Shown one piece after another: positions 25,332 to 35,084 of a DNA stretch of 64,000 nucleotides. Source of the stretch: Escherichia coli (GTDB lineage Bacteria > Pseudomonadota > Gammaproteobacteria > Enterobacterales > Enterobacteriaceae); assembly GCF_003334305.1 (NCBI RefSeq), contig NZ_QOWS01000001.1; one strand, given 5' to 3'. The notes below the pieces were generated by a model. The model worked only from the letters and a program-made list of their open reading frames with translations, was not told the origin of the DNA and did no database searches. The translations under genes were made by a program, and so were the position numbers. The stretch's first letter is position 1; each line of letters begins with the position of its first letter.

Positions 25332-26464
25332 GACTGAAGATTCTCCGCAAGCCATGATGCCAGCTCGCCCGGTGTCATGGCGGCTATTTGTGCGCCGACA
25401 TTTACCAGCGCCTGGGCCGTATCGTGGTCATAGCAAGGTGTTGCTGTGCTATCGAGCGCTGCCAGTCCCAGCACTTTGATGCAGCTCTGGACACACTTTT
25501 TCACCTGATGCGTCAGTAATGATGATGAACCCCCTTCGTAAAAATCGCTCACGAGGATAATGACGCTTTTCGCTGGTTGTTCAATAAGTTGCCGACCATA
25601 CTCCACGGCACTGGCGATATTGGTCCCGCCGCCCAACTGTACTTTCATTAATAACTCTACCGGATCGGCAACGTCTGCCGTGAGATCAACGACGCTTGTG
25701 TCAAACGCCACCAGATGGGTACGAATGCCGGGTAACTGCCACAAACAGGCCGCCATCACCGCAGAGTGGATCACCGAATCGACCATCGATCCGCTTTGAT
25801 CAACCAGTAAGACCAGTTGCCATTGTTCGCTTTGGCGTTTAATGCGGCTGTTAAAGCGGGGGGATTCGATATACAACTTGCCGTGTTGCGGGTGCCAGTG
25901 TTGCAGGTTGGCGCGCAGAGTACTTTTGAAATCAAAGTTTCGCGCCAGTGGAATAAATGAACGGCGACGGCGATCGCGGACACCAGAAAAAGCCTGACGA
26001 ACTTCCTTTGCCAGTCGCGCCATAATTTCTTCAACAACCTGGCGCACTATCTGGCGGGCGGCAGCCAGTACTTCGGGATTCATCAGATGTTTGGTGTGCA
26101 AAACGGCGCGTAGCAGGCTTTCCGAAGGCTGCATACGTTCCAGCACGTCGAGATTTGTCACCACATCTTCAATGCCGTAGCGCAGTACGGCATCGCTTTC
26201 CAGCCGCTCAATCACCTGTTGCGGAAACAGCGTGTGGATACTGTTGATCCACTCAGGAGTGGTGAGATTTGAGCCACCTAATCCACCAGAGCGTTCACCA
26301 CGCTGGAGCCGTTCAGGATCGCGCCCATACAGCCACTCCAGCGCGTGATCTATCTGCCGGGCGTTGTCATCCAGCCCACAAAGCGTCGTTTCTGCCGCTT
26401 CGCCAAGAATTAATCGCCAGCGTTGTAGCTCACGGGTGGTCAGAAGATCGTTCAGTTCAGACAT
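25328..26464 (-). CDS. yehP: von Willebrand factor A (VWA) domain protein YehP with MIDAS motif
   Basis: 378 aa from MSELNDLLTT; MIDAS DxSxS in LLVDQSGSMVDS; overlaps yehM 3' end by 8 nt. Confidence 0.85.
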   Translation of the reverse strand: MSELNDLLTTRELQRWRLILGEAAETTLCGLDDNARQIDHALEWLYGRDPERLQRGERSGGLGGSNLTTPEWINSIHTLFPQQVIERLESDAVLRYGIEDVVTNLDVLERMQPSESLLRAVLHTKHLMNPEVLAAARQIVRQVVEEIMARLAKEVRQAFSGVRDRRRRSFIPLARNFDFKSTLRANLQHWHPQHGKLYIESPRFNSRIKRQSEQWQLVLLVDQSGSMVDSVIHSAVMAACLWQLPGIRTHLVAFDTSVVDLTADVADPVELLMKVQLGGGTNIASAVEYGRQLIEQPAKSVIILVSDFYEGGSSSLLTHQVKKCVQSCIKVLGLAALDSTATPCYDHDTAQALVNVGAQIAAMTPGELASWLAENLQS

Positions 26465-27098
26465 GGAAAACTCCCCAGTGTTGCAGCGATGCCAGTGCCT
26501 GCTGTTCGAGTTGTTGATGATGTGCAATGGCTTGCGGTGGACAATGCAACGGCATTTGCAGTGCCGAAACGGGAAGTTGCGCCAGTTGATAATGCTCAAG
26601 CACCTGATGCGCCAGCGTTCCGCGTTCTCGTGGCGGTAGCCAGGCCATCGCCGCGCGTAAATCGGGCAGGGCATTGATAAAATCGGCATCACTTAGTTGA
26701 TTTAAATGACTGCTGAAACCGGCGATAAATGTCGGCTGACAGGCCAGTTGATGACGGGCTAATGCCAGCAAACCTTGCAGCGCCTCGCCGGATTGTGCCG
26801 GGGATAACTGCGCCAGCATCGTCAGCGCCGCTTCGGCACTGGCGTTGGGATGTTCCAGACGCATTAGTGCGCCAAGAACCGCGCCGCGATCCAGCGCCGG
26901 GGCATGAATCGCCTGACTGCGTCGCTCCAGTAAGGCTACCGCCGCAGAAAGCGAAACGCCGGATAAATTAACGCCGCTATGTAGATCGCGCAGAATATGG
27001 CAAAGCGCTTGCCAGCTATGCAGGTGAGCGTGAAACTCCTTTTCATCCGGTCTGCCGTTAGATTCACACAGCCACAGCGTGCGATCGATAGCGCGCAT
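26457..27098 (-). CDS. yehM: C-terminal ~213-aa segment of YehM, in a different frame from the N-terminal segment (apparent frameshift)
   Basis: ORF MRAIDRTLWLCESNGRPDEK... continues to a stop overlapping the yehP start; frame differs by one nucleotide from 26936..28735. Confidence 0.55.
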   Translation of the reverse strand: MRAIDRTLWLCESNGRPDEKEFHAHLHSWQALCHILRDLHSGVNLSGVSLSAAVALLERRSQAIHAPALDRGAVLGALMRLEHPNASAEAALTMLAQLSPAQSGEALQGLLALARHQLACQPTFIAGFSSHLNQLSDADFINALPDLRAAMAWLPPRERGTLAHQVLEHYQLAQLPVSALQMPLHCPPQAIAHHQQLEQQALASLQHWGVFHV

Positions 27099-28735
27099 AA
27101 CGTCGTTTGTAATATCTGCGCGCCTTGCATACCGCTAATTTCATCCAGCCGCCATAAGGCATATAGCACTTCCAGCGCCTGGCCCATTTCGGCAAATTGA
27201 TTTTCCTGGGCGATTAATAATGTGAGTTGCTCCAGTAATTGTTGACTGAAGGACGCCAGACCCGCTAACGCCGCCTGGCTAAGACATGTGGTGATACTGC
27301 CGATTCCACCCGCGTCCAGCATATCGGCTTCTAATTTATGGCGTGCGGCTTCCTGGAGTGTTGCACCAAAGCAGGCGGCCTCAATCAATGCCGCATGCTG
27401 GCTAAGCGGGCGGGTTAATTTCCAGCGTTCTTCACCGTTGCCTGCAAGTGTCAGTGTGCTTCCCTGCTGGCGTACAATCCCTGGGATCTCCAGTATTGCC
27501 AGCCGATGTAACACCTGACTTTGCGCTAGTCCATTGGGGTTAAAGCGATTTAAGGTAAGCTCCGCCGGAAGAGAGATTGCGGTACGTTCCAGTTCGCAGG
27601 TGACATCTTTTGGCAGAGGCGGTTGTGGCGTAGAAGGGGCAAGTTTACCGAATCCGTCACCCGCTAATGTGTCTATCAACGTTAGCAGAATCGGATCGGT
27701 ATCGGGATGAATAACGCCGCGATAGCTCCACGGCAACGGCGCATTCAGGGCTTCTTTAATCAGCGAGCCTGCTATGGCATCCAGCCAGTCAGTGCGTAAC
27801 GGTAGTGTATGACCGCGCAACTGTGCCAGCGCCATCGCATGCAGATGAGCGGCAGCCATATCCGCGGTCGAAGCAGGCAACTTGTGCTGGCGCAAACGGG
27901 TGAGAACCGTTTTTAGCAGTTGTTCTCCCGCCTGCTGTAAGCCCCACTGCCAGCACCAGTTTTGCCAGACCGGGGCAGGCATTCCGGAAAGGTATCCTGC
28001 CAGCACATCAAGGCGCTTTTCACTGTAGGGGGTGAGATAACAACCTGTAACGGCATCTGCCAGCGACGGCAATTCTGGCGTGTTAATTTCCTGCGGGCAT
28101 TCGCGCCACATTTTTGCCAGTACCGGAGCGTGCCAGCCACCGCAGACAACTAACACGTCGCCATTATTTTGCTGCATCGCCCATCCAATCCAGCGGGCCA
28201 TAAAGGCTTCGCGCAGACGATTGAGAGCATCTCCGGGGGAGTCGCCCCGCAGTTGGGCAAAATAGTGCGCCAGTGCAGAGGGTAATGCAGTTTGCTGGCT
28301 TTCATCTTCGAACAAGTGATCCCACAGGGTGTCGCTGTTATCCATGCGGGTGGCACGCAGCAGCAAGGCCTGGCTTTCCTCTTGCGTATCAGGCGAATCG
28401 TCCACTTCTTCACTCTGCGCCCAGCAAGGCAAATCGATGAAGTAAGTTTGTGCCTGAATACGACGTGCGGCTTGTAGCGCCTGCCACTCCGGCGAAAATT
28501 CAGCAAATGGCGTCCAGGCACCACGCCCGGGGGCTGCACCGTCCTGATACTGGCAATAACTGTAAATAGCTACCGGAAGCTGGTGGGCTAAAAACAGTTC
28601 GTCTACCCGGTCATTAAAATCAGCCGGGCCTTCAATCAATACGTATCGTGGCCGCTGGCTTTCGATTAACGATTTCACCAGCCGGGCGCAGGCCGGACTA
28701 TGATGCCGGATGCCGACAATTAACGGCTCGCTCAT
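26936..28735 (-). CDS. yehM: N-terminal ~599-aa segment of YehM (unknown-function partner of the MoxR/VWA pair)
   Basis: Start MSEPLIVGIRHH overlaps yehL 3' end by 12 nt; the last ~50 codons before the stop at 26936 look out of frame. Confidence 0.6.
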   Translation of the reverse strand: MSEPLIVGIRHHSPACARLVKSLIESQRPRYVLIEGPADFNDRVDELFLAHQLPVAIYSYCQYQDGAAPGRGAWTPFAEFSPEWQALQAARRIQAQTYFIDLPCWAQSEEVDDSPDTQEESQALLLRATRMDNSDTLWDHLFEDESQQTALPSALAHYFAQLRGDSPGDALNRLREAFMARWIGWAMQQNNGDVLVVCGGWHAPVLAKMWRECPQEINTPELPSLADAVTGCYLTPYSEKRLDVLAGYLSGMPAPVWQNWCWQWGLQQAGEQLLKTVLTRLRQHKLPASTADMAAAHLHAMALAQLRGHTLPLRTDWLDAIAGSLIKEALNAPLPWSYRGVIHPDTDPILLTLIDTLAGDGFGKLAPSTPQPPLPKDVTCELERTAISLPAELTLNRFNPNGLAQSQVLHRLAILEIPGIVRQQGSTLTLAGNGEERWKLTRPLSQHAALIEAACFGATLQEAARHKLEADMLDAGGIGSITTCLSQAALAGLASFSQQLLEQLTLLIAQENQFAEMGQALEVLYALWRLDEISGMQGAQILQTTLCALSIARCGCVNLTADRMKRSFTLTCIAGKRFAIFCAIYIAALIYPAFRFLRR

Positions 28736-28745
28736 GCATCTTTCC

Positions 28746-29834
28746 TCACGGCAGGCGGTGGCGGGCTTGATAATAAGCCTGCCAGTGAGCTTCTTTATGT
28801 GTGGCGACTCGTTGTTCGAAGTAACGGCGCAGACGAGCGCGATCTTCTTCGTTATCTTTGACGATGGTTCCGGCAATGCAGTCCACCAGGTCGGCTGGCT
28901 CACCTGCGCGATTCGCTAAAAACCAGGCGCGGACGCCTACGGCGTGGGCCACGTTCACGGCTTCAGCGGTGGACATAATCGCTGTTAGTGTATCCATTGA
29001 CGTTTTCTTTTCGCCGTTGGCACGCAGATCGCGGAAGGTGCGGACCAGTAACTCCAGTACCGCGTCAGGCACTTTATGCGGAATACCGCTATGGGCCAGC
29101 AAACGCGCCGAAGCACTGGCGACAAGCTCCAGCTCCTGGGCGAAATCCATAATCGGAAAGACAGTTTCAAAATCGAAGCGACGCTTTAGCGCAGCACTCA
29201 TTTCATTGACGCCGCGATCTCGGGTATTGGCAGTGGCAATAATATTAAAGCCTTCTCGCGCATAGAGCTGACTGGCTTCACCAGTGAGTTCCGGCACCGT
29301 CATCACCCTGTCAGAAAGCATACCTAACAGACAGTCTTGCACTTCCAGCGGTGTACGCGTTATCTCTTCAAAACGGACGATTTTGCCGTCGCGCATTCCC
29401 TGGTAAAGCGGGGCAGGGACCAGCGCTTCCGTTGATGGACCATGATTGATAAGCAGGGCGTAGTTCCAGCCGTACTTGATTTGATCTTCGGTAGTAGATG
29501 CGCCGCCCTGGATGGTTAACCCGGCATCGCCGCTAATAGCGGTTGCCAGTAATTCAGACAGGAGAGATTTTGCGGTGCCAGGTTCCCCCACCAACATCAA
29601 ACCGCGCCCGGTGGCAAGAGTGACTAACATGCGTTCGACAGCGGAGGGACTAATCACCACTTTACGGCTAATATTTTGCGCGCTATCGCCAAGGATAAAA
29701 GCACGGGCCGCAGGCAAACTTAACTGCCAACCGGGCGGGCAAGGAGCGTTATCATTTTGTTTTAATTTTGCCAGTTCATCGGCGTATAACACAGCAGCAG
29801 GCGGACGCTGCAGATGATTATTCTGCGGTGACAT
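28746..29834 (-). CDS. yehL: MoxR-type AAA+ ATPase YehL
   Basis: Walker A GEPGTAKS, Walker B-like IVRFEEITR; 362 aa from MSPQNNHLQRPP. Confidence 0.88.
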   Translation of the reverse strand: MSPQNNHLQRPPAAVLYADELAKLKQNDNAPCPPGWQLSLPAARAFILGDSAQNISRKVVISPSAVERMLVTLATGRGLMLVGEPGTAKSLLSELLATAISGDAGLTIQGGASTTEDQIKYGWNYALLINHGPSTEALVPAPLYQGMRDGKIVRFEEITRTPLEVQDCLLGMLSDRVMTVPELTGEASQLYAREGFNIIATANTRDRGVNEMSAALKRRFDFETVFPIMDFAQELELVASASARLLAHSGIPHKVPDAVLELLVRTFRDLRANGEKKTSMDTLTAIMSTAEAVNVAHAVGVRAWFLANRAGEPADLVDCIAGTIVKDNEEDRARLRRYFEQRVATHKEAHWQAYYQARHRLP

Positions 29835-29941
29835 ATATTCATCCCTGAAATGTATTAATGAAATAAACGATATTTTACGCGCAATAAATGTTTGGCGCAT
29901 TAGTTGTTTGAGCAAAAAATATCTGGAAAGCAGATCGCAGT

Positions 29942-30028
29942 AAATAAAAAAACCTGCTGGTGAGGCAGGTTCTTTTATTTACTATTTTCAGGCCTAACAC
30001 CACAGCCTGTGCAACATCGTGTTCCAAC
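29942..30028 (-). ncRNA. orzP: Orz-like antisense sRNA (type I antitoxin), copy proximal to yehL; approximate ends
   Basis: Minus-strand sigma70 promoter (-35 ttgcaa 30058..30063, -10 tataat = plus attata 30035..30040); intrinsic terminator 29951..29971 plus U-run; 5' end complementary to zor leader at 30175..30194. Confidence 0.55.
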
Positions 30029-30034
30029 GAACGA

Positions 30035-30085
30035 ATTATAACCACGGCTGGACCCCGTTGCAATTAAGATAATGAGATTTATAAT
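30035..30085. promoter_or_regulatory. Divergent overlapping sigma70 promoters sharing one palindromic -35 hexamer (TTGCAA)
   Basis: ttgcaa at 30058..30063 is its own reverse complement; plus-strand -10 tataat 30080..30085 (16-nt spacer); minus-strand -10 at 30035..30040 (17-nt spacer). Confidence 0.55.
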
Positions 30086-30266
30086 CCAGACCGTTGGGAC
30101 GTTGCGCCGGATCGAACCTATTTCAAGTCCTGGCTACCGGACGGGGGGTGCTGCAGGTGGTGCCCTGATCCGGAGTGCAACATCGTGGTCCAACATACGT
30201 AAACCAGTATCGACAGGCAGTGTAAGGGTAAGGTGCTGGTGTTGCGCTCCTTAATAAGGAGAGCGG

Positions 30267-30356
30267 ATGGACTCGCTGACACAAAAGTTAACCGTGCTCA
30301 TTGCTGTACTGGAGCTATTAGTGGCTCTGTTACGGTTGATTGATTTGTTGAAGTAA
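30267..30356 (+). CDS. zorP: 29-aa hydrophobic type I toxin peptide, Zor family (MDSLTQKLTVLIAVLELLVALLRLIDLLK)
   Basis: ATG 8 nt after SD ggagag; single TM helix with C-terminal Lys; predicted leader ~174 nt from TSS ~30093; O versus P naming inferred from position. Confidence 0.6.
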   Translation: MDSLTQKLTVLIAVLELLVALLRLIDLLK

Positions 30357-30376: not shown

Positions 30377-30404
30377 TAAGGGGGAAAACCGCTTCCCCCT
30401 TTAA
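30377..30404 (+). terminator. Intrinsic terminator of toxin mRNA (copy 1)
   Basis: aaggggga aaaccgc ttccccctt hairpin followed by tt/aat. Confidence 0.6.
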
Positions 30405-30551
30405 TAAAATGATTACTGTTTTTATTAATTCATCATATAACTCATTTTTATTTATAAATTCATCGATTTTATATTCAACGCACCATTTGACCGGGATGTG
30501 AATATTTATGTTGGGCTATTGGCAAAAAATATCTGGAAAGTAGATCGCAGA

Positions 30552-30636
30552 AAATAAAAAAACCTGCTGGTGAGGCAGGTTCTTTTATTTACTACAGTGA
30601 CGCTAACTTGCTGATTGTGCAACATTTCGTACCAAC
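30552..30636 (-). ncRNA. orzO: Orz-like antisense sRNA (type I antitoxin), copy proximal to yehK; approximate ends
   Basis: Same architecture as copy 1: -35 ttgcaa 30666..30671, minus -10 at 30643..30648, terminator 30561..30581; 5' end complementary to leader 30785..30802. Confidence 0.55.
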
Positions 30637-30642
30637 GAATAA

Positions 30643-30693
30643 ATTATAACCATATCCACACTCCATTGCAATTCAGTGAGTGAGATTTATAAT
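30643..30693. promoter_or_regulatory. Divergent overlapping sigma70 promoters sharing a palindromic -35 (copy 2)
   Basis: ttgcaa 30666..30671; plus -10 tataat 30688..30693; minus -10 at 30643..30648. Confidence 0.55.
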
Positions 30694-30874: not shown

Positions 30875-30964
30875 ATGGACACGCTGACACAAAAGTTAAC
30901 CGTGCTCATTGCCGTACTGGAGTTATTAGTGGCTCTGTTACGGTTGATTGATTTGTTGAAGTAA
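30875..30964 (+). CDS. zorO: 29-aa hydrophobic type I toxin peptide, Zor family (MDTLTQKLTVLIAVLELLVALLRLIDLLK)
   Basis: Differs from copy 1 peptide by one residue (T3 vs S3); SD ggagag; hand-translated, below ORF-track cut-off. Confidence 0.6.
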   Translation: MDTLTQKLTVLIAVLELLVALLRLIDLLK

Positions 30965-31017: not shown

Positions 31018-31073
31018 CTATACTCGTCATACTTCAAGTTGCATGTGCTGCGACTTTAATTATCTAGAGTATA
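31018..31073. repeat. Short ERIC variant (both ERIC termini joined, central part absent)
   Basis: ctatactcgtcatacttcaagttgcatgtgctgcg matches the left end of the ERIC at 295..428, and aattatctagagtata matches its right end. Confidence 0.65.
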
Positions 31074-31391
31074 TTATTCTATTTCTTGGTTGAATATATT
31101 CTGTAGTTCACGATTAAAAATTGCTATTACAGTTTCAGGTGATTCACCTCGTAATTTCCGCTCATCAATACACTCATCTCTTATATAAATCAACGCATCA
31201 TTTATTAGCGGGTCAGCATCTTCTCGATCACGTTGATGAAATGTTGGATGTAGCCGGAATCGCTCCAGTCGATAGACGGAACCTGTAAATAATTCAGAGC
31301 ATTTATGGATCTCAAGTCTGAAGGAAAACGGATCTTCAGGTACAGGGACCTCATAATCGTAAATAGCAACTAGCTCTTTTTGCACGATCAT
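31074..31391 (-). CDS. yehK: Uncharacterised small protein YehK (105 aa)
   Basis: ORF MIVQKELVAIYDYEVPVPEDPFSFRLEIHK...; recognised by sequence and position downstream of yehI. Confidence 0.75.
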   Translation of the reverse strand: MIVQKELVAIYDYEVPVPEDPFSFRLEIHKCSELFTGSVYRLERFRLHPTFHQRDREDADPLINDALIYIRDECIDERKLRGESPETVIAIFNRELQNIFNQEIE

Positions 31392-31451: not shown

Positions 31452-34400
31452 TTAATGGAAAATGACGTCAGGTGCGCTTAACGCCTCACTCAAATCAAAC
31501 ACATCAAGTTCGGCAAAAGTGACGGATTTATTGTCACGGTACACTCGAAGAGAACGGAAGCTCATTAGCGCTTTGCTATCAACATTGTAGTGGTTAAAAC
31601 CGGGTGAAAACTTAAGGACCAGCCGGTACTCGCCCAGGTCATAGACAAATGCATCCTCATAGCCTGACTCCCAGCCTTTGTATCGCATTCCCATAAGCTG
31701 CCCAACGGTAGCGGATTTACCTTCCCAGCGAGTCAGGCTGTTACTGGTTGACTCATCAGGTGTGAGCAGCACCGTGCACCGCGCCAACTGGCGAAAAGGC
31801 GGCATAATTTCGTAATCGGCAAAAAGCTGTGCAAATTCACTGCGCATTTCTACTGTCATTTCTAACGGGTGGGCAATGCCAATCAGAGCGTCCGCAGGCA
31901 GGTCAATTGGCTCATCTTGCGCATTGCAGAACTCCCCCTCTGCGGCCACACGAAAGGCGTTGAGTAAACAACGCGGTTCATTTGCCGGATAAGCCCCCCA
32001 TATTAATCGCTGGGTAACCAGACGGGTAAAGGGATGATTAACAAACAGAGAATGAAAATCTGCCAGCGACCAGCGTCGGGTGGTACGTAGGGCCGTTTCA
32101 AGACGCGGGAGCAGGTTTTTGCTCACCTGAGTGGCATCTTTTTTTAGCCCTTTTAGTCGGGCCAATGCCTCGGGCGCTTTCAGTTGATCGTCATCGGCGC
32201 GCAACCGGGGAACGCTTTTCTGGCGAACGTTTTGCTGATCAAAGATAACCGGGTTGAGGTTTTCATCGAAGCGAACGGTAAACTGCCGGGGACCAAAATC
32301 AAAACTCAACGCCTGCGGATCATCAAGGCCCAGGGTTGGGACTAATCTGTCCGCTAGCTCTTCCTGGCTTAGCCCGCGATTTTCTGCGACCACCTGAAGA
32401 AATTCCGCCGCGTTATCACGTAAGGGGCGGGATTTCGCCCGTTGCGATATATGATGCAGCTGTATCAGCGCCATATCATTATTCATCAGGGTAAGGATGT
32501 TCAGGCCACTGACAGCACGGGCAGATTTGCCTTCTTGTGGCCAGCCGAGGATCTGTGTCGTTAGATCCCGTGCCGTGCTTTCGTCACCAAAGAGACTTAA
32601 CGCCAGAAATGCCCAGTTGTCTTTTACGGGGGCACCAGCTTGTTGCCACGCAGTGAAGAGATCCCAGGCAAAAGCTGCCAGCGTTTGTGGCTGGCAGAAC
32701 GTTTTCAGTTGTTCCAGCCCGCTATAAAAACGTCCCCCCTGGGTAAAGCGCAGCATTTCGCCGATAATTTCCAGAGCGTCATCGGTAACAGGTTGATTAT
32801 TAGTGATAAGGCGCGGCCTGGACCACATTTGCGGATGCCAGAAATCAGGGGCTTTTGGAATGCGTGCCGGGTAAATCTCTATTGGACTCTGTTTAAGTAA
32901 TTGTTCCAGGGCAGGCCATAGATCTGTACGCTGCCAACGATTGGCTACAGTTTGTAGCAATTCGCCATGCCCATGTTCGTAAAGTAAACGCAGGGCAAGT
33001 AATGCAGCTTCGCTTTTATCGCTAGATTTGGTGAAGATAAGAGGGATAAGTGCAGTAGCCGTATGTTCCGGCCATTGTAAAATCCACTGGCGAGCCAGAT
33101 TACGCTGGCCCGCAAAACGGTGCCAGACGCGGGCAATGGGCAGGGCCAGTTCTGTTGCGCCGAAATTTAAAATTAACGGAAATGTTTCTTTTGGACGATG
33201 TGAAAAAGCCAACATCAGACCTGGTAGCGCATCCAACCCGAGGATACTGAGAAAATAGTCCTCACCCGCGAACAGATGTTTTTTCTCATTGATACGCAGC
33301 CAGAAGGTCAAAGCCATCTCACGCGGCAACTGTGCCAATAAATACAGGTTCCAGACACTCTTTTCCGGACGATAACGTGAGTAGTTGTCATTTTCCCATA
33401 TGTTAATTAACGCTTCTATGTGACCGCTGCGGAGCGCCTGTTCTGCTAATTGTGCTTCCGGGGAGTTCCAGCCATTCAGGATCTCTTCAACCCGCCCCTG
33501 GTAGTAATGCCACTGAACAATGAGTGAATTGCGTGCAGCATCCAGTTTTCCGGGGAGTATATAATTCAAAAACAGCCATACATCATCCCCAAAACCCAGT
33601 TCCTGTAATACAACTCGCCCACTTTTTTGTTCCATGCGTTCCGCAAGAGATTCCGTGCTGAAATAACGGGCAGGCTCAGTGGCGGCAAGCCTCTCTCGTT
33701 CGCCAGGTTGCCAGTAAACTTGCGGCGTTAATTCGAGCGGTGCCAAATCAAGACGTGGAGCTGTCATTTTTTTCTTACTACGCCACGGTGGTGAAACGAG
33801 GATTTCAGGCAGATTGCTGTTATCGGTACTATCAATAACCGGTTTGGGCGGTGCCGATAAATAACTATTCAGCACTGCCCTGGCTTGAGTACTTAACCAC
33901 TGCATCATCTCTTCTGCCAGTTGTGGCTGCGATGCCATCAGCGTTTGTAACAGCGTACGCCAGTATTCATCGCGTGCTTTTTGCTGTGCAGGCAGCTTTT
34001 TGTCTTCGATGATTGGATAACCTGGGCGGGCTGGTGGTTCTGTTAACGCCAGCAGTTCTGCCAGTGCGGCGAGCGTCGCATGGGGGAAGTTTTTATGGTA
34101 TTTAGCTACACGTTGCAGGCTGGGTTTGTTTTTATCAGCCACCAGTAGCAAGGTGCGGATGACTTGCGGATGGTTAATTTGTACCAGCAGACTGCCGCAA
34201 TCTTCTTTATGGGCATACATCGCGAGGCGCGGAATGGCTGCCAGTCCTTGTTCGCGCAAAAGGGCGGCGCAGGCCGCGTAGCCGAAGTGGTTTTCATGCG
34301 ACATGTAGCTGGCTTCTCGATCGCTAAATATATCCTGGCTCCAGTAGTGCTCGAGTTTTCTCACCGCTGTGGGGTCATTAGCAACAACTTTTAACCACTC

Positions 34401-35084
34401 CTTAGAATGAAAATGAGTTCGCGGGCATTCAAGGCCTACCAACTCATTGGCTATTTCTGGTTTTTCCGGGAGGATCAGCGCAATAAAAGGGCGGCGAACT
34501 TTGGTTATTCCTGGTAGTGCGGCAATGAGTTTGTCGGCGCAACGCTGCCAGCAGCTTTCCTCTGCCAGAGAGAGATGCTTACGCAGTCGGAGATCGAATT
34601 CGTTATAGGTTTCTGAGCGATAACCATAGCCATAATCCTCGTCCTGATACTGCAATGTCACTACCAGAGGATCACTCTCATAACACCGCGCAATAAACTG
34701 GCGTGCAATCACCACCTCAGTCGCATATTCCAGCCCCTCTTGTTGGACGATTTCGTCGAGCAACTGTTGGCTGTCATTTTGCGCGATACAGGCTAGCGCC
34801 GCCATTGTCCGGGCCGGGATTGAGGGTTTGTGTTCGCCGATCAAGTTGATGGCCTGCGTGATGGCGGACTGCCACTCCAGTGAAAAATTTTCATAACGCC
34901 AGACAATGTTTTTTTTCTTCTCAGCTTTTTGTAGCAATTCATCACCCAGTGTCTGAATGATGCTTTCAGTGATAACAGGCACCGGTTCGCCCGGCCATTT
35001 GCGATGACTGAGTGGTGTTTTGCCTTTTTTATATTTCAGTTCCAGTTGGGCGTTATCCGCCAGCCACGGTAATTCCTTGTCCAT
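31452..35084 (-). CDS. yehI: Large DUF4132-family protein YehI (1210 aa), paralog of MolR
   Basis: Shares long collinear blocks with the upstream ORF (e.g. RLRKHLSLAEES.WQ.CA.KLIAA, LFADYE..PPFRQL). Confidence 0.85.
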   Translation of the reverse strand: MDKELPWLADNAQLELKYKKGKTPLSHRKWPGEPVPVITESIIQTLGDELLQKAEKKKNIVWRYENFSLEWQSAITQAINLIGEHKPSIPARTMAALACIAQNDSQQLLDEIVQQEGLEYATEVVIARQFIARCYESDPLVVTLQYQDEDYGYGYRSETYNEFDLRLRKHLSLAEESCWQRCADKLIAALPGITKVRRPFIALILPEKPEIANELVGLECPRTHFHSKEWLKVVANDPTAVRKLEHYWSQDIFSDREASYMSHENHFGYAACAALLREQGLAAIPRLAMYAHKEDCGSLLVQINHPQVIRTLLLVADKNKPSLQRVAKYHKNFPHATLAALAELLALTEPPARPGYPIIEDKKLPAQQKARDEYWRTLLQTLMASQPQLAEEMMQWLSTQARAVLNSYLSAPPKPVIDSTDNSNLPEILVSPPWRSKKKMTAPRLDLAPLELTPQVYWQPGERERLAATEPARYFSTESLAERMEQKSGRVVLQELGFGDDVWLFLNYILPGKLDAARNSLIVQWHYYQGRVEEILNGWNSPEAQLAEQALRSGHIEALINIWENDNYSRYRPEKSVWNLYLLAQLPREMALTFWLRINEKKHLFAGEDYFLSILGLDALPGLMLAFSHRPKETFPLILNFGATELALPIARVWHRFAGQRNLARQWILQWPEHTATALIPLIFTKSSDKSEAALLALRLLYEHGHGELLQTVANRWQRTDLWPALEQLLKQSPIEIYPARIPKAPDFWHPQMWSRPRLITNNQPVTDDALEIIGEMLRFTQGGRFYSGLEQLKTFCQPQTLAAFAWDLFTAWQQAGAPVKDNWAFLALSLFGDESTARDLTTQILGWPQEGKSARAVSGLNILTLMNNDMALIQLHHISQRAKSRPLRDNAAEFLQVVAENRGLSQEELADRLVPTLGLDDPQALSFDFGPRQFTVRFDENLNPVIFDQQNVRQKSVPRLRADDDQLKAPEALARLKGLKKDATQVSKNLLPRLETALRTTRRWSLADFHSLFVNHPFTRLVTQRLIWGAYPANEPRCLLNAFRVAAEGEFCNAQDEPIDLPADALIGIAHPLEMTVEMRSEFAQLFADYEIMPPFRQLARCTVLLTPDESTSNSLTRWEGKSATVGQLMGMRYKGWESGYEDAFVYDLGEYRLVLKFSPGFNHYNVDSKALMSFRSLRVYRDNKSVTFAELDVFDLSEALSAPDVIFH

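Follow-up and report, generated by a model that had tools for sequence, protein, structure and literature searches.

The type I antitoxin RNA gene orzP lies just ahead of the yehLMPQ operon, on the same strand, in Escherichia coli

The gene for the OrzP antitoxin sRNA, the terminator of that sRNA and yehL all lie on the minus strand of the 64,000-nt stretch of Escherichia coli DNA analysed here (hereafter the window), according to re-derived coordinates. Earlier papers already describe the elements themselves, their location in the yehI-yehL interval and the orphan copy of K-12 (PMC2887945, PMC11264685). The co-orientation of orzP and yehL is real and conserved, and is undiscussed in the literature that we searched. 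On balance, and with modest confidence, we think that OrzP is transcribed and terminated autonomously, and that its terminator shields yehLMPQ, an operon which would be weakly expressed, silenced by H-NS and driven by a separate promoter within the spacer. A regulatory link between orzP and yehLMPQ is a hypothesis and not a finding.

The initial annotation described an sRNA co-directional with and immediately upstream of yehL, ending at a terminator (29951..29971) ~115 bp before the start codon. Both descriptions hold. The yehL ATG (29834) lies 111 nt from the OrzP 3' end (29945) and 117 nt from the edge of the stem. The yehL CDS coincides with the RefSeq annotation of the identical sequence in strain M8, and its start is taken here as the annotated ATG, while the mechanical ORF reaches a TTG at 29915. 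yehL is the first gene of the yehL-yehM-yehP-yehQ cluster, which is tightly packed, with a 10-nt gap followed by 8-nt and 4-nt overlaps. The yehK-yehL interval holds two tandem zor/orz type I toxin-antitoxin modules with the zor toxin ORFs on the plus strand and the orz antitoxin sRNAs on the minus strand, and this placement of the module leaves orzP head-to-tail with yehL. ZorP differs from ZorO by T3S (PMC11264685), and the zorP 5' UTR, counted from its promoter to the ORF, is ~175 nt long.

Table 1. Features of the orzP-yehL region in the window.
Feature	Coordinates	Strand	Description	Basis
yehM	26457..28735	-	second operon gene; 1-bp deletion near 27091/27092 relative to strain M8	
yehL	28746..29834	-	362 aa, MoxR-type AAA ATPase	ORF and translation; RefSeq annotation of M8 and K-12
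Spacer part 1	29903..29944	-	~43 nt of the zor/orz repeat unit; recurs after the orzO terminator	pairwise alignment of the two copies
Spacer part 2	29835..29902	-	~68 nt, unique to the yehL side; almost invariant in Escherichia	
Shine-Dalgarno of yehL	29846-29842	-	AGGGA, in spacer part 2	
P1 candidate promoter	29944-29916	-	-35 TTTACT 29944-29939, 17-nt spacing, -10 TATTTT 29921-29916	PWM 8.8
P2 candidate promoter	29877-29872 (-10)	-	-10 TAAAAT, poor -35	PWM scan
orzP intrinsic terminator	29940..29982	-	core stem-loop 29971..29951; U7 29952..29946	
OrzP antitoxin sRNA	29945..30028	-	~84 nt; 5' pairing region, internal hairpin, terminator hairpin	
orzP promoter	30035..30063	-	-35 TTGCAA 30063-30058, 17-bp spacer, -10 TATAAT 30040-30035	
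zorP promoter (divergent)	30058..30085	+	TTGCAA-16-TATAAT	promoter scan
OrzP target site	30175..30194	+	zorP 5' UTR; 13 contiguous + 6 nt complementary to OrzP nt 1-20, one mismatch	
zorP toxin ORF	30267..30356	+	29 aa, MDSLTQKLTVLIAVLELLVALLRLIDLLK	ORF translation
Second antitoxin sRNA, OrzO type	30555..30636	-	Rfam 88.8 bits over 30629..30556; terminator identical to that of orzP	
zorO toxin ORF	30875..30964	+	partner of the second, OrzO-type antitoxin	ORF translation
yehK	31391..31074	-	upstream of yehL, same strand	
yehI	35084..31452	-	upstream of yehL, same strand	

OrzP matches the Rfam family RF02083 (OrzO-P) at 30021..29946 on the minus strand with 99.9 bits (E = 1.3e-16), covering model positions 1-76 of 76; both orz copies lie above the family's gathering score of 60 bits. 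The RNA folds at -36.1 kcal/mol (z = -5.2), and its MFE structure agrees with the RF02083 consensus structure of two hairpins, the last of them the terminator hairpin, plus a U-tract. From a start near 30028 its length is ~84 nt, and Orz RNAs run as discrete bands of ~85 nt on northern blots (PMC2887945). The copy in the window is of the P type and is identical to K-12 OrzPmg and EDL933 OrzP. On the opposite side of the divergent promoters lies the zorP ORF behind its long 5' UTR, as expected of a zor/orz module, in which a small hydrophobic toxin is encoded divergently. OrzP and the zorP UTR share 19 paired nt in total, which agrees with the published rule for pairing between sRNA and UTR, namely 15 or more contiguous nt, or 17 or more discontinuous nt with one mismatch (Wen et al., quoted in PMC11264685). 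The Rfam score, the pairing site in the zorP UTR and the 29-aa toxin ORF together bear out the earlier proposal that the yehL-proximal sRNA is an Orz antitoxin, and its predicted role is to pair with the zorP 5' UTR. For the zorO-orzO pair of EDL933, rescue from the toxin by the sRNA has been shown experimentally. According to PMC2887945, Z3289 and Z3290 are both toxic when overproduced.

Each orz sRNA is preceded by a TTGCAA-17-TATAAT promoter. That of orzP matches the consensus at 10/12 positions, and within the window its PWM score of 12.9 stands at the 99.9997th percentile. Its -35 hexamer, a palindrome, doubles as the -35 of the divergent zorP promoter. Conservation of the orzP promoter is reported to exceed 99% (PMC11264685). 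With its own sigma-70 promoter close to consensus, its 84-nt RNA and its intrinsic terminator, orzP would form a self-contained transcription unit, a view that the discrete northern bands support.

The terminator was flagged by the scan, and folding agreed. Its core is a modest hairpin of 7 bp (4 G-C pairs) with a 7-nt loop at -8.5 kcal/mol, and the stem is followed by U7 and then A-UUU, as expected of an intrinsic terminator. The core sits in a 43-nt perfect A-tract/U-tract palindrome (-21.3 kcal/mol), which makes the element terminator-shaped on either strand. orzO and orzP end in the same stem-loop plus U7. Across 10 Escherichia sequences the orzP terminator is invariant, while the pairing region of the sRNA varies (O, P and Q types) before the same yehL leader.

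Termination at this site can be followed in K-12, where the sRNA and terminator sequence is identical to that of the window. Term-seq of MG1655 placed a 3' end at 2204485, '-111' from yehL, with a sequence ending in ...GCAGGTTTTTTTA (Adams et al. 2021); this position corresponds to window 29945. The end was above threshold in 1/3 conditions (by tab order the LB OD 2.0 sheet), with low read counts at the locus of about 1000-2300 (Adams et al. 2021). Further 3' ends at 2204446 and 2204445 (-150/-151) fall within the sRNA past its first hairpin (Adams et al. 2021). The Rho score of 0.47, which is not significant, belongs to the -150 end (LB 0.4 sheet), as does an intrinsic-terminator score of only 1.24, and the -111 end is listed without a Rho or terminator score (Adams et al. 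2021). The Term-seq table lists a 3' end only if a TSS lies upstream, which fits the start of OrzP. The -111 end shows that termination at the orzP U-tract occurs in vivo in K-12, a result that concerns its occurrence and not its efficiency. Most OrzP transcripts of K-12 would then end at the U-tract, 111 nt ahead of the yehL ATG, and the terminator would insulate yehLMPQ both from the strong orzP promoter and from transcription of yehI and yehK.

Given the 111-nt geometry, any yehL promoter must lie within the spacer or upstream of the terminator, and 111 nt is room enough for a promoter plus leader. No spacer promoter emerged from a strict scan for the sigma-70 consensus, and a looser PWM scan gave two weak candidates, neither of them decisive. 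P1 is the top-scoring spacer candidate; its -35 abuts the U-tract, 1 nt past the mapped sRNA 3' end. It is a weak candidate, with a score that is equalled or beaten in 5.5% of 140-nt bins, and in E. whittamii an 11-nt insertion disrupts its spacing, while other lineages have TTTTTT or TTTTCT as the -35. P2, whose -10 is good, is better conserved than P1 in the Escherichia alignment, and the second part of the spacer is weakly alignable with the upstream region of Klebsiella yehL. It had been proposed that the yehL promoter lies within or overlaps the 3' region of the sRNA. The position of the P1 -35 against the U-tract agrees with this, but P1 is weak and less well conserved than P2. A search for a yehL TSS in the supplementary data from SMRT-Cappable-seq, Kim 2012 and Ettwiller 2016 gave no match to yehL or its coordinates.

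H-NS binding near yehL and yehM has been classed as 'intergenic' in K-12, and both genes are up in hns/stpA mutants (PMC3686432). The binding and the rise in the mutants favour a separately controlled, silenced promoter. On this reading, a weak promoter within the spacer, silenced by H-NS and belonging to yehLMPQ itself, would give low expression of the operon, with P1 or P2 as candidates, and a minor share of its transcription may come from leakage through the terminator.

The orz-yehL junction is widespread. A query of 241 nt that covers everything between the orzP -35 and the start of yehL, with at least 80% coverage required, was found in 5201/5426 complete E. coli genomes, and a second query, which joins the 5' end of yehL to its unique leader alone, was found in 5197. 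Essentially every yehL-bearing E. coli has an orz gene directly upstream (5201 versus 5197), and the only orz-less case that we inspected is an IS1-mediated rearrangement. About 90% of the best junction matches are at least 95% identical (P type), and the remainder carry O- or Q-like sRNAs before the same leader. The junction also occurs in Escherichia sp. MOD1-EC7003, Escherichia sp. E1V33 and E. whittamii, which belong to non-coli or cryptic clades. Judged from these matches, the position of zor/orz beside yehL is probably old, being common to E. coli and the cryptic Escherichia clades. No Orz RNA was found beside yehL in Klebsiella, Intestinirhabdus, Erwinia, Serratia, Edaphovirga or Thorsellia. 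In Klebsiella, Intestinirhabdus and Erwinia, yehL directly follows a yehI homologue, at a distance of 77 nt in K. grimontii and 34 nt in Intestinirhabdus; in K. oxytoca the gap upstream of yehL is 230 nt and has its own terminator-like hairpin.

It is the toxin that varies among strains. About 30% of E. coli genomes are 'orz-only', without toxin, and OrzPmg has been seen by northern blot (PMC11264685). Of the toxin-less strains, >99% share one zor remnant of 27-29 nt (PMC11264685). In K-12 the toxin is lost, but orzP remains together with the two divergent promoters and ~45 nt of zor UTR. The initial annotation had envisaged strains with and without the zor/orz insertion in which yehL expression could be compared. 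This premise fails, since orz, its promoter and its terminator are kept in K-12 and in essentially all yehL-bearing E. coli, and only the toxin part differs. With orz so retained, such a comparison would not isolate its effect.

The locus is the same as zorO-orzO/zorP-orzP of E. coli O157:H7 (Fozo et al. 2010, PMC2887945; Wen et al. 2014, PMC3919570), where two tandem modules between yehK/yehI and yehL encode 29-aa toxins and divergent ~85-nt sRNAs that pair with the toxin 5' UTR. Across the region the window shows 99% identity to it, and nothing structural differs. Fozo et al. placed the repeats 'between yehI and yehL', and yehL appears there solely as a flanking gene (PMC2887945); neither the co-orientation with yehL nor an effect on yehL is discussed in the O157:H7 papers (PMC2887945, PMC3919570). 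OrzPmg of K-12 MG1655 (mSystems 2024, PMC11264685) is the same sRNA gene with the same promoter, terminator and position, and is identical over the sRNA. K-12 differs in being without toxin, whereas the window has zorP and zorO; no function is assigned to the orphan in that paper, and yehL goes unmentioned.

With an sRNA gene directly upstream of an ORF, the orzP-yehL arrangement also corresponds to sgrS-setA-type units. In sgrS-setA (Sun & Vanderpool 2011; Morita et al. 2015, PMC4509938; PMC9765468) and the proposed ryhB-yhhX, an sRNA terminator with a long U-tract likewise stands head-to-tail with a coding gene, and by this likeness read-through of the orzP terminator into yehL may be considered a legitimate possibility. 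The setA start lies 27 bp past the terminator and co-transcription has been demonstrated, whereas yehL lies 111 nt away, behind promoter candidates, and has no known bicistronic RNA with OrzP. SgrS is moreover an Hfq-dependent trans-acting sRNA, and OrzP a type I antitoxin. For tisB-istR-1 and shoB-ohsC, a co-directional operon downstream is not known to have been discussed. These loci also have a divergent antitoxin that pairs with a long toxin 5' UTR (PMC2887945); they belong to other families and occupy other genomic positions.

The most serious competitor to independent expression of yehLMPQ is that a sizeable, possibly condition-dependent leak from the orzP promoter provides its main mRNA, with the terminator as the control point. 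We consider this doubtful. The near-consensus promoter upstream is co-directional, no convincing promoter is found in the spacer, and the orzP core hairpin is modest. Precedent exists in double-terminator assays, in which read-through was ~50% for SgrS, 41% for CyaR and 5% for GcvB, as well as in the co-transcription of sgrS and setA and in the way sRNA termination efficiency shifts with stress, improving under it (PMC4509938, PMC9765468). The in vivo 3' end at the U-tract, the discrete northern bands (PMC2887945) and the invariant, perfect A-tract/U7 architecture count against it, and a separate promoter would fit into the spacer, which is longer than the 27 bp of sgrS-setA. In exponential phase Orz RNAs are plentiful (PMC2887945), yet yehL is H-NS-silenced. 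Even a leak of a few per cent from the near-consensus orzP promoter could rival a promoter silenced by H-NS. Gene order in relatives also bears on the matter: the gaps of 77 and 34 nt between yehL and its upstream gene in K. grimontii and Intestinirhabdus suggest that E. coli yehL lost a likely upstream drive once yehK and zor/orz lay between. A further argument for read-through is that orzP and its promoter are kept 100% identical in toxin-less strains, which PMC11264685 leaves unexplained, but the common zor remnant in >99% of them makes a single inherited deletion a possible account. The zor/orz literature searched reports no regulation of yehL, no polar effect and no bicistronic sRNA-yehL transcript. 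A bolder form of the idea is that the zor/orz promoter-terminator pair took over yehLMPQ in an Escherichia ancestor, once the module lay between yehI/yehK and yehL, that a regulated leak of the OrzP terminator is the main source of the transcript, and that orzP hence persists in the ~30% of E. coli that are toxin-less; we regard this as unlikely.

Polymerases coming from orzP, by often starting, pausing and terminating there, could instead occlude P1, such that high antitoxin transcription lowers yehLMPQ. P1 begins 1 nt past the mapped sRNA 3' end and the orzP promoter is very strong by sequence, but P1 is a PWM match in a segment that was duplicated with the module, its spacing is destroyed by the insertion in E. 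whittamii and its -35 varies elsewhere. We find such interference highly improbable. Control by base pairing, in which OrzP, alone or as part of a read-through RNA, covers the yehL RBS and start codon and blocks translation, is scarcely credible. The MFE fold of the read-through RNA does join OrzP nt 37-43, 24-31 and 11-19 to the Shine-Dalgarno-proximal region, codons 2-4 and codons 8-10 of yehL, and the OrzP-yehL duplex of -33.6 kcal/mol is better than 99% of shuffles (p about 0.01). However, 10% of the 85-nt windows in the same 64 kb equal it, or 14.5% when intramolecular structure is included, which puts the complementarity at chance level. The O-type sRNA, which precedes the same invariant leader in some lineages, reaches just -17.5 kcal/mol, and there is no covariation. 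Pairing of OrzP with the yehL start region was thus rejected as chance, with 10-15% of natural windows as good and no pairing by the O type.

We therefore return to an autonomous OrzP unit and a separately driven yehLMPQ as the preferred reading. Weak promoter candidates, a modest core hairpin, low Term-seq counts and the leakiness of comparable terminators are points against it.

The condition of the downstream operon is relevant to the weight of any such link. In the window the yehM frame stops after 599 of 759 codons, and yehM is annotated as a pseudogene also in O157:H7 ATCC 35150, APEC IMT5155 and PCP06171. The frameshift and the pseudogenes suggest relaxed selection on the operon in several lineages, which in turn lowers the likely biological weight of any orzP-yehL link in the present strain. 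YehI, YehK, YehL, YehM, YehP and YehQ gave no match to the PADLOC defence models.

Neither the sequence analyses nor the zor/orz literature searched yielded evidence of a functional link between orzP and yehL. By itself, the sequence presents a known sRNA gene with a working terminator, upstream of a poorly expressed and often decaying operon. If the link were true, a type I antitoxin gene would for the first time have a role in cis regulation. The link could then explain why K-12 and other E. coli that lack the toxin retain an expressed orphan orzP, a question raised in the field (PMC11264685), and would give a handle on the uncharacterised MoxR/DUF5682/VWA/SWIM cluster yehLMPQ.

Outside Escherichia (loci L028, L007 and L009; L028 is from K. 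oxytoca), yehK is absent between the yehI homologue and yehL, and thus yehK and the zor/orz modules are Escherichia-specific additions within an older gene cluster. The gap separating the yehI homologue from yehL is 34 nt in Intestinirhabdus and 77 nt in K. grimontii; in K. oxytoca (L028 2800-2832) and K. spallanzanii it is 230 nt and contains a terminator-like hairpin.

In several lineages, the yeh cluster appears to be eroding. In the window, yehM (26457-28735) lacks 1 bp that is present in strain M8, with the indel near 27091/27092, and is cut off after 599 of 759 codons. Annotations of O157:H7 ATCC 35150, APEC IMT5155 and PCP06171 likewise list yehM as a pseudogene, and strain N24 has frameshifts in yehK/yehI. 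In PCP06171, a rare natural variant, the orz/zor region is gone and an IS1 element occupies its place immediately before yehL (L030 2511-3300), 37 nt from the yehL ATG. This strain is a possible natural comparator lacking orz, although its yehM is a pseudogene.

Published K-12 Term-seq data (Adams et al. 2021) include a second 3' end within the antitoxin RNA OrzP, immediately after GGCCUGAAAAU (K-12 2204445/6, equivalent to 29984-29985 in the window and to -150/-151 from yehL). It is present in two of the three conditions, with counts at least equal to those at the OrzP terminator. This internal end implies a ~45-nt 5' fragment, which may arise through processing or during RNA decay.

The zor/orz repeat unit extends ~43 nt past the orz U-tract (CTGCGATCTgCTTTCCAGATATTTTTTGC), one copy following each orz gene. 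Separately, any leak through the orzO terminator (3' end ~30555) would yield a transcript that runs along the minus strand through 30380-30560 and is antisense to the entire zorP gene. The zorP terminator (30380-30400) offers no minus-strand T-run that could halt such read-through.

Repeated and shared elements of the zor/orz region
Feature	Coordinates	Position
Repeat-unit tail	29903-29945 and 30513-30555	past the orz U-tracts
Common zor and orz -35 hexamer, palindromic TTGCAA	30058-30063 and 30666-30671	one per module
Short interspersed repeat	31019-31074	between zorO terminator and yehK

The short interspersed repeat matches several sites in each E. coli genome, with a median of 5, and has a weak match to isrH. 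In the toxin-less remnant of K-12 (L001 ~1850-1940), the zor promoter is intact and now oriented so as to enter yehK from its 3' end, on the opposite strand, making it a potential source of antisense RNA against yehK.

Within each module, the divergent zor and orz promoters share their -35 hexamer, on which RNA polymerase probably engages in only one orientation at a time. If true, such single-orientation engagement would build competition between toxin and antitoxin transcription into the module itself.
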